From: Candidatus Bathyarchaeota archaeon
Lineage (GTDB): Archaea > Thermoproteota > Bathyarchaeia > Bathyarchaeales > Bathycorpusculaceae
Direction of reading: 5' to 3'
DNA length: 21,632 nt
NCBI GenBank assembly: GCA_963739305.1
Contig: CAVTZU010000025.1
Span: 1-21,632, forward strand
Positions 11,362-18,899 of the stretch are shown here, one piece after another. The position numbers and the translations under genes were made by a program. Under the pieces are notes generated by a model, which saw only the letters and a program-made list of their open reading frames with translations, did no database searches and was not told where the DNA came from. How positions within the stretch are numbered: position 1 is the first letter of the stretch; each line of letters begins with the position of its first letter.

Positions 11362-12327
11362 CTAGGAGGTCTTCAATTCGTCGAAGAACTCTGTCAGATC
11401 TGCGTTGGAAAATCCATCGCTATCGGCGATTGGCTGTTTTGCAGGCGGCTTCTCAAGGTAAAATGGTATTCGATGCTCAAACCGTTCTAGGAACGTGGGT
11501 TCAAGGCTGTTGCTGTAGAACACTCCGATGGGAATTCTGTCGCCCCATTCTTCAGCCTTCTTGAGAGCTGCCGCCTTCTTTTCGAAGTCCTCACTCTCCC
11601 TGCGCACGATGGGGTCGAAACCTGTTTCTTCCAGCTTGTAGAGCCTAGGTTGTGGCCTGCCTGTCGACGGGTCAATTCTGTCTTCTCCACCATACCATTC
11701 TTTCGTGTTTATGTCATTGTAAGTTGGACATGGCTGCAATGTGTCAATGAACGCCAAGCCCTTATGCTGAACCGCCTGAATTATCGTGTCCTTCAAGTGC
11801 TTCACGTCATAGGCATATGACCTGGCAACGAACGTATAGCCTGACACGATAGCGAGGGCAATAGGGTTCACCGACCCGTTGATGTTGGGTTTCGGAATAG
11901 CCTTCGTCTTGAGACCCAGTTTCAATGTCGGAGAGGCTTGGCCTTTCGTCAATCCATAGACACCGTTGTTATGTATGATGTACGTTATGTCCAGGTTTCT
12001 TCTTCCTGTATTAACAAAGTGTCCGGCACCTATGCCAAGCCCGTCGCCATCTCCTCCGATGGCAATCACCTCTAAATCAGGGTTAGCCACCTTGATTCCG
12101 AGTGCAAACGGGAGAGGCCTGCCGTGAAGCGTGTGAACACCGTTAACCCTGACGTTGTGTGGCTCCTTACCGGAGCAGCCTATGCCTGAAACCAAAACCG
12201 TGTTATATGGCTCTAACCCTAATTCTGCAAAGGCCATCTGCAGGGCTGTCATGATGCCGAAGTCTCCGCAGCCAGGGCACCAGTCGGCGAATATGTCGGT
12301 CTTGAAGTCGGCTGGTTTAAGAACCAT
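11362..12327 (-). CDS. korB: 2-oxoacid:ferredoxin oxidoreductase beta subunit (TPP-binding)
   Basis: [50 protein letters not shown]; substrate specificity cannot be determined from sequence. Confidence 0.93.
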
Positions 12328-12344
12328 AAGTCAACACCTGTCTT
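12324..12344 (+). repeat. Left att site (CCATAAGTCAACACCTGTCTT)
   Basis: Identical to 18879-18899; contains the korB ATG and the imperfect IR TAAGTCA-ACACC-TGTCTTA (12327-12345). Confidence 0.93.
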
Positions 12345-12389
12345 ACGTCTTAGTAATTCAATGGTCTTTTTATCTTCTTCTGTTGTCAT
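12324..12389 (-). pseudogene. int(N): N-terminal fragment of the split integrase ([22 protein letters not shown])
   Basis: ATG 12389 preceded by AAAGGAG (12407-12401); same frame through the att core as the int(C) ORF. Confidence 0.75.
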
Positions 12390-12488
12390 TGTTGTTTGGT
12401 CTCCTTTAGGCTTGGTTTGGTGTTGTATATGAGTTCTGCGAGTTTTTGGTAAAAGATTGCCTTGTCCTTCTTCTGTTGGTTCAATATT

Positions 12489-12674
12489 TCAACTCATTTT
12501 TGGTTGAGTTTCGATTTCTCGGAGTGTGACCACTAGGACTTTGATTACTCCTCTTGGAGTTCTGTACGTTCCTATGTGGTCTAGGGCGATTATCTGTTCA
12601 CTCGGGTTCTCGGTTCTCAACATATCCATCACACATCCATTCACTTTCGTTGCGTTGACGCGACGAGAAGGCAA
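12489..12674 (-). CDS. Small hypothetical element protein
   Basis: Short ORF co-directional with and upstream of int(N); start uncertain. Confidence 0.3.
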   Translation of the reverse strand: MPSRRVNATKVNGCVMDMLRTENPSEQIIALDHIGTYRTPRGVIKVLVVTLREIETQPKMS

Positions 12675-12810
12675 TACGCATTTCTAAAAGGGAGTCTAGA
12701 AGGAAGCTAACGCATAGTTGCAAGATTGGCTTCCGTACGGAATGAGAGACGACTTTTCCTCTTAAATTTCTAATGAGGGAAATGCCTATGCCTTCGAGGA
12801 GATCGTTCAT
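12598..12810 (-). CDS. Small hypothetical element protein
   Basis: 70-aa ATG ORF in the element backbone; no recognisable motif. Confidence 0.3.
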   Translation of the reverse strand: MNDLLEGIGISLIRNLRGKVVSHSVRKPILQLCVSFLLDSLLEMRIAFSSRQRNESEWMCDGYVENREPE

Positions 12811-16203: not shown

Positions 16204-16247
16204 GAGCTACCTTGCTCTGGGGCGAATCCTCAAAATCCTGCAATCAT

Positions 16248-16862
16248 CTATTTTTCAGTAGTTTTCGTTTTGATCTGCGTTCGAGCTTCTTTCAAACCGT
16301 CGTCATTCAACCAGAATGGCTTATCCCTTCCTTTCTTGGCTTGAGAAGCATCTATAAAATGCTTTCTTCGAAGTGATCTCAAAGCCAACCCAAAATCTCG
16401 ACCAGGAAGTGGAATTCCATTTGGACCTTTCAGAAGTCTTTTCATGTAAGATACTTCAACTGACTTTTGCTGCATGCCTACTTGAAGCGTGTAGGTGATG
16501 AGGAGTATCGCTTCTTCTACGTCCTTCGGTTTCTTTGCCAGAAATGGAACCAAAGTTTCAAATTTCGCATCTTTTCTGAGTTCTATGACTTTCCCAACGA
16601 GATCTTTGGAAGTATCGAGATCCCTGACTATTTGATCATATTCTCTTCCTTCGGCGGGTGGCCCTCGCGGTGTTGGCGGATGAGCTTCTTGTTGCTTTTC
16701 GGTTGATGGTTCACCAGTAGTTGACCCTTGAACAGGTAGGTTTTTGATGTGATCGAATACCTCCTTGAAGACCTCCTGTACTGAATCACCATAGTATTCG
16801 ATCTCCTTGTCAGCCCATTTAATTCTGAACCCAGAATGAGCATTTTTCCTTTCTTCAGTCAT
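16248..16862 (-). CDS. Hypothetical protein with probable C-terminal winged-helix domain
   Basis: Short N-domain (FRIKWADKEIEYYG), Pro-rich linker, C-terminal ALRSLRRKHFI...FWLNDDGLKEA wing pattern. Confidence 0.65.
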   Translation of the reverse strand: MTEERKNAHSGFRIKWADKEIEYYGDSVQEVFKEVFDHIKNLPVQGSTTGEPSTEKQQEAHPPTPRGPPAEGREYDQIVRDLDTSKDLVGKVIELRKDAKFETLVPFLAKKPKDVEEAILLITYTLQVGMQQKSVEVSYMKRLLKGPNGIPLPGRDFGLALRSLRRKHFIDASQAKKGRDKPFWLNDDGLKEARTQIKTKTTEK

Positions 16863-16930
16863 TTTTTATCAAAATAAGTTACACCGAAAGGCAATTTAAG
16901 CATATCACCTTATCGTAGGCTAGACCTGAA

Positions 16931-17890
16931 TTGTCTGAACGCCCTAAGAAGTATCCTGATGAAGATGTAATAGAGAAAATACTTGATCAAGTTCATGACG
17001 TCGCTTGGAATAATTTGATTCTGGATAAGGGTCAGGAGAATAAACTCCTTGAAGATCTAAAGTGGGTACTTGACATCTGGAACAAACAGTATTTGGGTCA
17101 TGATCGGCTGACAGAAATCGTGAGTCAGAACTACCTTTCAGCATTGCCAACTTGTGGAGACAAACCTCGAATCTGTAAAGAACTGGATTTGGTGATTTGT
17201 TTCTTTCAGCATTACATCTATGCTTTTGAGGAGTTTATGACTCGTGGATTTCGTGATTCAGTAATTCGATGTGGACTTGTATGCGAAAGACTTGTAAAAA
17301 GACTGGCTGTTGCTGATGGGCATCCCGAAGTACTCAATATTTTCAGGTTTGAGGATAGAGCGAACAAAGTCATGAGTCTTCTATCAGGTCGTGTCAATGA
17401 CATTCAATTTCTGATAAGTCGAATGAAATACATCTATTCCAAAAGGACAGAAAGGGGAGCACATGACACAGGAGCAGCAGGGATCCTGATAGCAAAATCT
17501 TGCATCAGTGAGATTCCAATAACTTACATGGAGTATCTTAATGCTCTTGAAAGACTAGGTCATAAGATTGGACCTAAGAATGAGTTGATTGAACTTGTCA
17601 ATGAAACGGTTAGTATTGGCACCACGATGATCGTTATCAGACCAGGAGAACCTACTGACCCTGAATCTATCTTGATTTCCATGTTTTCACAGAACTATTT
17701 TGCGCAACCTAGATCATTTGCTGAGATAACCGCTGCAGTTGTGAATCAAGAGTTTAATATACCCAAAACAACTCTTTGGCAGGCTTTGAAAAATCTATGT
17801 GCAAAGAAGATCTTGACTAGGAGCGGGCGTGGTATATATGTTCAAAGAACACCACCAGAGAAGTACTACAATAAGGAGATCACAAAGTAA
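16931..17890 (+). CDS. Putative HEPN/Abi-like protein with C-terminal winged helix
   Basis: DSVIRCGLVCERLVK helix and Rx5H motif (RTERGAH); C-terminal PRSFAEI...TLWQALKNLCAKKILTRSGRGIY. Confidence 0.65.
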   Translation: MSERPKKYPDEDVIEKILDQVHDVAWNNLILDKGQENKLLEDLKWVLDIWNKQYLGHDRLTEIVSQNYLSALPTCGDKPRICKELDLVICFFQHYIYAFEEFMTRGFRDSVIRCGLVCERLVKRLAVADGHPEVLNIFRFEDRANKVMSLLSGRVNDIQFLISRMKYIYSKRTERGAHDTGAAGILIAKSCISEIPITYMEYLNALERLGHKIGPKNELIELVNETVSIGTTMIVIRPGEPTDPESILISMFSQNYFAQPRSFAEITAAVVNQEFNIPKTTLWQALKNLCAKKILTRSGRGIYVQRTPPEKYYNKEITK

Positions 17891-17963
17891 AATCCTGTGC
17901 GCACTACCGCCCTTAGTTTTGCTCTCACACGCTTGTTGTCAATAAAAAAAGATAGATTTGTGT

Positions 17964-18899
17964 TTATTTGCGTTTTCGGTATAGTTTGATTCCATCTATG
18001 TCTTGTATGTATTCGAATCCTGCTTCTAGGAGTGTGGTGGCTTCTTTGACGTTGGTGGCTGTTCTGGTTATGTATTGTTGTTCTTCTTGGTTGTCCAGTA
18101 AGTGGGTGTATCGGTCTGTGGTGTTTGAGTGTTTGTGTCCTAGTAGGTATTGGGTTCTTTTTAGGTCTGTTTTGTAGTATGTTGTGGTTGCGAAGTAGTG
18201 TCTTAGGTCGTATAGTCTGATTCTGTGTATTGATGGGTCGTTTACCTTTTTGGCGAGTCGGTTTCTGACGACTCGGTATTCTTTGCCGTATCTTGTTTGG
18301 TCGCCTTTGAACAGCTTGTCGTTGGGTTGTTTGTTTTCTCTGGTTATGTAGTCTCGGAGAAGTAGTGTTAGCTGTTCGGGGATTTTGATTTTTCTTGGTG
18401 CTCCGTGTTTTGCGGTGGTTGGGAAAACATATCTTTGTTCTAGGTCTATGTCTTTGGTTTTGAGTTCGAAGATTTCTACGGGTCTTAAGCCTGTTTCCAT
18501 GCTGAAGCGTAGTTTGAGGGCTAATAGTTTTCCTGCGTCTGCTATGATTTGCTCGATTTTGGTTCTTGCTGGTATTTGTATTTCTTTGGCGTTGTCGTAG
18601 AATCTTTTGGGTTTTTTCCATTGTATTTGGTTGTATTCACAGAATTTTTGATAGGCGTACAAGTATCGGTTTTTATAGTTGTTGCTTCGTTCGAGTTGTT
18701 TGACAAATACTTCTACTGTGTGGGGGTTGTTGAGGTCTGTGTTTTTGTCTAGGCTGCTTATCATCCATTCGTAGTTTCTGATGTCGGTTTTGCATGTTCC
18801 GTTTTGTTTTAGTTGGTTGAGGAATTTGGCTACGGCGTTAAGATTTCGGGTGTTGATGCGTGTTTTTGGGCTTATGAGCCATAAGTCAACACCTGTCTT
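17964..18899 (-). CDS. int: int(C): catalytic fragment of tyrosine recombinase/integrase (first internal ATG 18764)
   Basis: ETGLRPVE (R), AKHG (K), YDLRHYFAT, LLGH, TDRY (Y). The frame is open from the att core to the stop, with no ATG between the upstream stop at 18969-18971 and 18764. Confidence 0.92.
   Translation of the reverse strand, partial: KTGVDLWLISPKTRINTRNLNAVAKFLNQLKQNGTCKTDIRNYEWMISSLDKNTDLNNPHTVEVFVKQLERSNNYKNRYLYAYQKFCEYNQIQWKKPKRFYDNAKEIQIPARTKIEQIIADAGKLLALKLRFSMETGLRPVEIFELKTKDIDLEQRYVFPTTAKHGAPRKIKIPEQLTLLLRDYITRENKQPNDKLFKGDQTRYGKEYRVVRNRLAKKVNDPSIHRIRLYDLRHYFATTTYYKTDLKRTQYLLGHKHSNTTDRYTHLLDNQEEQQYITRTATNVKEATTLLEAGFEYIQDIDGIKLYRKRK

Follow-up and report, generated by a model that had tools for sequence, protein, structure and literature searches.

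What becomes of an integrative element when its own integration cuts its integrase gene in two, and what becomes of a host operon when the cut falls where two of its protein genes overlap? The locus that raises this question lies on contig CAVTZU010000025.1 of a Candidatus Bathyarchaeota archaeon (assembly GCA_963739305.1), a 21.6-kb contig in a 2.3-Mb metagenome-assembled archaeal genome that we analysed over its whole length of 21,632 nucleotides (the window). Here korA and korB, which encode the fused gamma/alpha subunit and the beta subunit of a 2-oxoacid:ferredoxin oxidoreductase, stand 6.5 kb apart. We consider it likely that a small integrative element was put into the korA-korB overlap by its own tyrosine recombinase and that in doing so it split its own integrase gene at an attachment (att) site in the 5' end of that gene.

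The limits of the element are given by a 21-mer, CCATAAGTCAACACCTGTCTT, that occurs exactly twice in the window, with 0 copies expected by chance (100 shuffles). One copy follows korA (attL core, 18879-18899) and holds the korA codons (R)QVLTY(G) together with the Shine-Dalgarno (SD) sequence AGGTG and the ATG of korB, while the other (attR core, 12324-12344) gives the present korB its SD and ATG. The copies are 6,555 bp apart, similarity around them reaches 30 of 34 nucleotides, and the G+C content is 0.426 within the element versus 0.48 in both flanks. On the minus strand the order is korA (18872-20851; Pfam POR_N 3.9e-54, POR 1.6e-30, and PFOR_II), core, integrase body, two open reading frames (ORFs) of no assigned function, a conserved motif of about 70 nucleotides, a SIR2-like gene, a NosD-like gene, the integrase start and leader, core, and korB (11362-12327; TPP_enzyme_C 4.9e-29, PFO_beta_C 4.9e-17), whose ORF is intact. 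Since the metagenome-assembled source genome has 7.8% contamination, and contigs of two relatives break at the core, an assembly chimera in which an element was mis-joined into korAB, or a chance repeat, has to be considered. The repeat is nonetheless exact, the same junctions recur in independent assemblies from four genomes and four distinct metagenome elements, and the korA stop codon is restored in every case; we give this explanation next to no credence.

The two ends of the element carry the two parts of one integrase frame. From ATG 12389, which has GGAG 11 nucleotides upstream, the minus strand reads 15 codons, MTTEEDKKTIELLRR, followed by the seven core codons KTGVDLW; this part, int(N), comprises start signals and leader (12345-12440, minus strand) and has the DNA motif ATTACTAAG directly before the core. 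In the integrated state it continues into korB in another frame as far as the stop codon at 12249-12251, forming a 46-codon ORF (12249-12389, minus strand) made of int(N), the core and 24 out-of-frame codons within korB. KTGVDLW is common to both core copies, and from the korA-side copy it leads on into the integrase body: the minus-strand frame 18899-17964, which starts KTGVDLWLISPKTR, has 311 open codons, counting from the core, and the body itself, int(C) (17964-18878, minus strand), matches Pfam Phage_integrase at 9.7e-21. The joined gene, as the sum of the two parts, has 15 + 311 = 326 codons, with att as codons 16-22. A preliminary description of this DNA, made from its letters alone, had proposed this 326-residue frame through the core from an SD-preceded ATG, the out-of-frame run of int(N) and the lack of a proper start for int(C), all of which we confirm; its remark that both ends share the same strand skew is correct but tells us little, host and element genes being on one strand anyway.

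On the korA side the integrase frame contains no ATG, GTG or TTG before ATG 18764, which encodes M46 of the body. The preliminary description would have been in difficulty if intact homologues began at the equivalent of this ATG, and they do not. In an AlphaFold2 (AF2) model, which like our conservation figures was built on an alignment of 33 sequences (32 homologues), M46 lies within helix 2 of the N-terminal domain, and residues before it are conserved in 30 of the 32 aligned homologues, so that M46 is, by model and alignment, not the natural integrase start. The inserted element accordingly has its start signals and 15-residue leader facing korB and the folded body behind korA without a canonical start. 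That the split product would be inactive in recombination we infer from the missing canonical start before M46 and from the domain limits in the AF2 model.

The split recurs at the same site. Five further independent elements with both ends, in addition to that of the window, were found between korA and korB, with integrases 32-80% identical to that of the window: G005 in the same genus (6.1 kb, integrase 32% identical), G282 in another genus (over two contigs, 53-54%), G387 in another genus (7.0 kb, 50%) and two metagenome elements, L067 (=L062) and L065 (=L064), of 6.5 and 10.4 kb with integrases 78-79% identical. In six out of six the korB-side integrase frame is open for 24-107 codons upstream of the core and has a start, and of the twelve alternative frames just one stays open beyond 20 codons; an SD of the GGAG or GGAGGTGA type precedes four of the six starts. 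The leaders are polar, 15-38 residues long and unalike among the six. On the korA side, four of the six have no canonical start before the equivalent of M46, and G282 and G005 have none within the stretch examined. All six thus have attP within the integrase ORF and a translated att, as the functional definition of type I (suicidal) integrases has it, and in the window and the five others int(N) and int(C) lie at opposite ends of the element. Identity blocks of the attL/attR pairs are 14-21 bp long, and CAGGTGTTGACNTA is the minimal block common to all of them, which means that strand exchange must occur within it. The elements share only the integrase, att and a motif of about 60 nucleotides, and their cargo is entirely different.

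What was there before insertion can be read from relatives. In 7 of 10 close relatives' loci korA (...RQVLTYGS*) and korB (ATG...) overlap by 8 nucleotides exactly at the core, and in a census of the 81 family genomes with an orthologue the two genes are adjacent in 72 (by coordinates in 70, by sequence in 2); four are occupied (G000, G005, G282, G387), two assemblies break at the core (G003, G006) and three could be placed in neither state. The expectation that uninterrupted korAB in relatives would join at the 21-mer is borne out by these loci and by one metagenome contig described below. The breaks in the two same-genus genomes fall within or beside the att core (G003:C88 end and C57 start; G006:C162 end and C179 start) and would fit a population of mixed occupied and empty sites. 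An apparent deletion between korA and korB in G388 was rejected, since the junction there is filled with Ns.

Both host ORFs are intact after insertion. The core retains the SD and ATG of korB, whose orthologues are 68-83% identical, and the element supplies the end of korA: the last three korA codons, GGC TCA TAA (Gly-Ser-stop, 18872-18880), are half core and half element DNA, and the resulting C terminus, ...RQVLTYGS*, agrees with that of relatives. Gly-Ser-stop is restored by element codons in eight of eight attL junctions, with four codon sets in use (GGC/GGG/GGA TCA TAA, GGC/GGG TCA TAG, and GGG AGT TAA in G005). Because G005 uses the nonhomologous Ser codon AGT, this pattern argues for selection on the end of the KorA protein, as far as codon comparison can tell. 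The element thereby has what is described for insertions at the 3' ends of protein genes, namely, direct repeats, a stop codon restored by the element and a site that is empty in relatives. The korA-side core, with its duplicate of the korB SD and ATG, also opens, in a frame other than that of the integrase, a 14-codon ORF (MAHKPKNTHQHPKS*; 18879-18835, minus strand; read by eye).

The window DNA was seen again in peat metagenomes, in four runs whose contigs were aligned to the window at 90% likeness; evidence was drawn from those stretches of the window that contigs covered. In run X4 there is one contig, of depth 24, that passes directly from 12323 to 18879 and has the 21 letters in common, as an empty site would, and in the same run the flank pieces have depths of 16-24 versus 3.3-5.0 for the element pieces; on account of this contig and these depths, the korA/korB site is polymorphic in nature. 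These observations also bear on whether the insertion is an old, fixed fossil with int(C) as a decaying pseudogene. Integrated copies are the only ones found, in the 10.4-kb element L065/L064 the integrase frame breaks off 79 codons into the body (L064/L065 10005-10240) and an element in the window's own genome of the type found at the RNase P RNA gene has no in-frame start, all of which a fossil would explain. Yet int(C) in the window has an open frame of 311 codons and retains every catalytic residue, the ratio of nonsynonymous to synonymous substitution (dN/dS) among close copies is 0.10-0.26, 72 of 81 relatives and a contig of the same habitat have the site unoccupied, and element pieces are less deep than their flanks, so that immobility seems very improbable. 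The dN/dS values show purifying selection on int(C). Synonymous divergence between close copies is 0.38-0.56 for the integrase, far below that of the flanking host gene korB, whose synonymous sites are saturated; the integrase therefore moved between hosts more recently than the hosts split. The L065/L064 gene appears from its sequence to be a decaying integrated copy, as is expected if some integrated copies decay.

The integrase belongs to a larger family with other targets. In 18 of 27 loci of relatives (L033-L059; integrases 40-49% identical, same order) the RNase P RNA gene adjoins the integrase gene, one further locus is at tRNA-Ala, and eight have no such gene that we found, four of these sharing the peptide signature. 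Integrase ORF and RNase P RNA gene overlap at the 3' end of the latter, and a single stretch of ∼35 nucleotides there is translated in all three frames in different members (SLNRRRVT.STPA, T.GGLRPAHQP and EQKAGY.QH). Fifteen RNase P-type elements were retrieved, eight of them with both att copies, and of those eight, three are split with an in-frame start on the element side. In RNase P-type and korAB elements alike, the element-side DNA before the core carries the motif ATTACTAAG plus about 8 nucleotides, whatever the frame, and this motif is a putative integrase-binding site. In a tree of 38 integrases (omitting L065, of 80 residues, and the G387 integrase; L025 repeats the L024 gene) the four close korAB enzymes form a clade (96/79) among RNase P-type ones, while the positions of G282 and G005 are not settled, G005 being on a long branch. 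The korAB label requires one change in 52% of bootstrap trees, which neither shows nor excludes a single origin.

Two variants of this arrangement deserve description in their own right. In L070 and L073 (also L033, L040, L057 and the proteins P0027, P0031 and P0082) the host RNase P RNA gene contains the ATG of the integrase (MPSLNRRRV...), and on the element side a stop codon immediately precedes the core. Only integration makes such an ORF complete, the reverse of "suicidal." The window genome itself holds two paralogues at tRNA-Pro(TGG) genes (C13:2166-2240 and C15:4343-4417), each with an antisense integrase ORF over it, whose ATG lies exactly at the tRNA 3' end and which reads through the whole tRNA (MGLPGFEPGSREPKSPSLDQ...).

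Several observations weigh against a self-splitting integrase, and they begin with the free form. No uninterrupted integrase gene covering the core was present among the best 120 of 454 protein matches; of the seven close metagenome loci, the six that extend to the 5' end of the integrase gene all have it behind korA and the other holds the 3' part only; the alignment, when run against viral contigs, brought up 14 distant matches, at 23-47% identity, none of them an attP form; and no joint that goes back from one end of the element to the other, as attP would, was seen among the 15 joints examined (16 more exist). A contig scan with the single integrase protein likewise gave 92 pattern matches and 0 confirmed cases. 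The absence of the free form in these data is weak evidence. Of the two junctions that the preliminary description had proposed to seek, the empty attB was found and attP was not, and the empty attB itself comes from one contig in one of four runs, at 90% likeness; it may derive from a sister strain that was always free of the element, which would make it a case of polymorphism and not of excision.

The leader itself raises the main doubt, which concerns function and not structure. Int(N) is short, polar and variable, and residues 1-13 of the body, adjoining it, are predicted by AF2 to be disordered; the detached part would be a disordered leader, and in this model it looks dispensable. The Int(N) of SSV1, by comparison, is a functional N-terminal part of ∼65 residues, whereas that of the window is a leader of 15. 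A conserved peptide "..LLRxK" that seemed to precede the core was rejected: RNase P-type elements have the same DNA, ATTACTAAG..., in frames other than this and downstream of stop codons, and since it is conserved as DNA in all frames, it provides no evidence for a conserved peptide. Among the RNase P-type elements with both att copies, moreover, two of eight take their ATG from the host RNase P gene and three of eight have no in-frame start on either side, and a split general to the family was rejected, since in the RNase P-type element of the window genome (C15:105952-106259; L022 1155-1462) the nearby ATG is out of frame. Finally, P0003, a protein 82% identical to the window integrase, starts MSQKTRINT with an ATG directly after the core, where other junctions have ATA overlapping the korA stop; some near-complete integrase, leaderless and otherwise complete, might for this reason be translated in the integrated state. 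P0003 is known from its protein only; a change of ATA to ATG would turn the korA stop TAA into TGA and give an ATGA stop-start overlap.

Taken further, these points lead to a classical integrase that does not disable itself, whose true start would be no earlier than the core, at the ATA overlapping the korA stop, so that attP would overlap a mere leader and the enzyme would still be made, perhaps coupled to korA translation. The start of P0003 is what such an enzyme would have; ATA is present at seven of eight attL junctions, and relatives' host Ser codon is TCT in seven of eight and TCA in one, where TCT would give TTA in place of ATA. The variable leader with its predicted disorder, an att read in all three frames in relatives and the purifying selection on int(C) are also in keeping with it. 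On the other side, ATA is no canonical start, the nearest SD-like sequence is 14 nucleotides upstream of it, and G005 has neither ATA nor ATG after the core. At the far end, furthermore, six of six elements have retained an ORF that is in frame and has its own start, four with a good SD, which would be unnecessary if translation began beyond the core. We judge a classical, undisabled integrase to be unlikely.

On the preferred reading, that of an integrase gene split by its own integration, the free form of the element would read the 326-residue integrase from ATG 12389 and the integrated form would make little or no full-length enzyme. Excision would then depend on a related integrase acting in trans, of which the genome may offer several (it has 18 integrase matches), or on rare initiation. 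The integrase promoter would now drive korB, and korA transcription would run on into int(C). The korAB specificity would be nested in a Bathyarchaeia-type family with att in the 5' leader, mostly at the 3' end of RNase P RNA.

Is this, then, a known type of split integrase? The window protein is a tyrosine recombinase by its PF00589 match (9.7e-21) and its full set of catalytic residues, R139, K164, Y230xxR233 (Y230-D-L-R233), H255 and Y264, all invariant in the 33 sequences. Its AF2 model (mean predicted local distance difference test score, 87.4) shows an N-terminal four-helix domain (helices 20-32, 37-53, 59-68 and 73-89), a catalytic domain and a small C-terminal domain. The best solved relatives are the archaeal XerA structures 4a8e and 5hxy (profile E values of 1.9e-20 and 3.8e-19, over both domains), followed by IntI4, XerH and XerD, with no SSV integrase chain among 14 PDB matches at E ≤ 10, and the closest named homologues in a protein search carry the label Candidatus Bathyarchaeia. 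XerA differs from it in resolving chromosome dimers and in having no flanking att repeats; the window enzyme is element borne and has an extra conserved C-terminal beta-alpha-beta-beta module. This module follows the catalytic Tyr (residues 276-310, 17964-18075); its G294, F295 and terminal K-R-K are invariant in the 33 sequences, and the G005 integrase lacks it.

SSV-, pTN3- and pT26-2-type suicidal integrases are marked by PF16795, and the SSV-type motif is R...KxxR...Y, while pNOB8-type enzymes have R...YxxR...Y (review excerpts, PMC8371274). PF16795 was unmatched even at E ≤ 10 for the integrases of the window, of G005 and of one RNase P-type element, all of which match PF00589 only, and the R...KxxR...Y consensus is absent, YxxR being invariant in the 33 sequences. 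According to the same excerpts, SSV-type enzymes target tRNA genes in hyperthermophiles (PMC8371274); the window contains no tRNA gene, its target being the korA/korB overlap. The fuselloviruses SSV1 and SSV2 (type I integrases; She et al., as summarised in PMC8371274) resemble our element in having attP inside the integrase ORF, int(N) and int(C) at opposite ends and a translated att (PMC8371274), and differ from it by PF16795, KxxR and a tRNA target versus PF00589 only, YxxR and a protein-gene junction. With pNOB8-type (type II) integrases it shares YxxR (PMC8371274, in part), but their gene stays intact on integration, whereas here it is cut at the core. The window integrase would work like a type I enzyme, but by its PF00589 match without PF16795 and its YxxR in place of KxxR it lies outside the SSV/pTN3/pT26-2 sequence family. 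Of the earlier proposal that SSV1/pTN3 logic had been applied to korA/korB, the split architecture therefore stands, the enzyme is of a different sequence family, and the "suicidal" inactivation is an inferred property.

Further parallels come from other archaea. The pTN3/pT26-2 elements of Thermococcales and Archaeoglobales, as far as the excerpts go, also have a self-splitting gene, varied att sites and sometimes different frames, and most of their genomic copies are integrated (PMC7253208, PMC8371274); rescue in trans by related integrases was proposed for Thermococcales (PMC7253208, in part). Their att sites, as reported in those excerpts, are all tRNA genes (3' and rarely 5' ends), of 40-50 bp or more, in hyperthermophile hosts (PMC7253208, PMC8371274), in contrast to the 14-21 bp block, the korA/korB, RNase P RNA and tRNA targets and the peat and sediment hosts of the window family. 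In Thaumarchaeota 14 of 68 integrated elements occupy the 3'-distal part of protein genes, with a new stop from the element (Krupovic et al. 2019, PMC6563490, in part). These elements have a median att of 17 bp and are small and cryptic with variable cargo (PMC6563490, in part), and they resemble ours in their protein-gene 3' end, element-supplied stop, short att, small size and variable cargo. NitEve-E3 has an SSV1-like integrase split on integration, but the insertions into protein genes are not reported as split-integrase cases in the excerpted text, which also describes none at an operon junction that holds the start signals of the next gene (PMC6563490).

What was known already, on these sources, is gene splitting by integrases at tRNA genes of hyperthermophiles and insertion at protein-gene 3' ends with a replaced stop; apparently new here are the other family and the protein-operon junction. 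Our literature search (supplementary tables lay outside it) found no split integrase of another family and none at a protein-gene or operon junction, and in the literature searched there was no such system in Bathyarchaeia and no mention of the RNase P RNA gene as an archaeal integration target. The suggestion of an undescribed family is plausible in view of the missing PF16795, the YxxR motif and this search. Gene-splitting integrases have been reviewed as a single-origin invention of PF16795 enzymes, linked to hyperthermophiles and tRNA genes, and as a puzzle, since elements carrying them should be trapped after insertion (review excerpts, PMC8371274). To meet this architecture in another recombinase family, among archaea of peat and sediment and at targets other than tRNA genes, would make a single origin less convincing and loosen the tie to high temperature.

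More speculatively, self-splitting may have arisen a second time, in an Xer-like PF00589 family of mesophilic Bathyarchaeia, a scenario we find possible without favouring it. A disordered leader that tolerates any sequence in any frame would let the family hop among the RNase P RNA 3' end (its main site), tRNA genes and the korA stop/korB start, and integration would amount to a swap of promoter and start codon. An AUA (AUG in one relative) over the korA stop could yield a trickle of leaderless, complete enzyme for excision, in which case the integrase would have two state-specific N termini and would not commit suicide. The locus offers a clean experimental case, with a detached part that consists of a leader and start signals, host ORFs rebuilt to the codon and a polymorphic site; excision of split-integrase elements and expression of the host operon are therefore directly testable. 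A core of 14-21 bp in a conserved protein operon may also interest those prospecting for integrases for archaeal genetics.

Among the remaining element genes no replication gene was recognisable. The SIR2-like cargo protein (14557-15684, minus strand; Pfam SIR2_2 5e-10) matches PADLOC Aga_SIR2 at 3e-22 and 22 further models, 23 PADLOC families altogether and mostly of SIR2 type, and its gene is a candidate anti-virus defence gene. Beside it lies a gene for a right-handed beta-helix (NosD-like) protein (12987-14492, minus strand; Pfam NosD 4.4e-23, Beta_helix 8.7e-22). A 319-residue ORF (16931-17890, plus strand) has no assigned function and no match to Pfam or PHROG families, a weak C-terminal AbiEi-like winged-helix match (PADLOC AbiEi 4e-4) and no homologue in the other elements at the korA/korB site. 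The second ORF of no assigned function, of 204 residues (16248-16862, minus strand), has 0 matches in Pfam, PADLOC and PHROGs; like it, the 70- and 501-residue ORFs matched nothing in PHROGs and PADLOC.

The noncoding motif of about 70 nucleotides (15715-15800) is common to elements of the window's integrase family. It has nine matches in the window's own genome, several adjoining other integrases, and lies directly behind the integrase gene in L063, L065 and G282 and 2.1 kb away from it in the window. No Rfam family matched the element, this motif included, at E ≤ 0.1. In peat contigs its depth is 166-1075. Many contig joints (among them 15786 to 16156, 15786 to 17954, and 16206 to 17964), which involve 16156-16210 as well, suggest that gene modules are swapped between copies of the motif. 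The rest of the window is typical of an archaeal chromosome: a LigD 3'-phosphoesterase domain gene (10889-11329) lies directly downstream of korB, and beyond it are a thiolase gene paired with one for an HMG-CoA-synthase-like protein (5827-8534) and a TFB gene (4001-5029).

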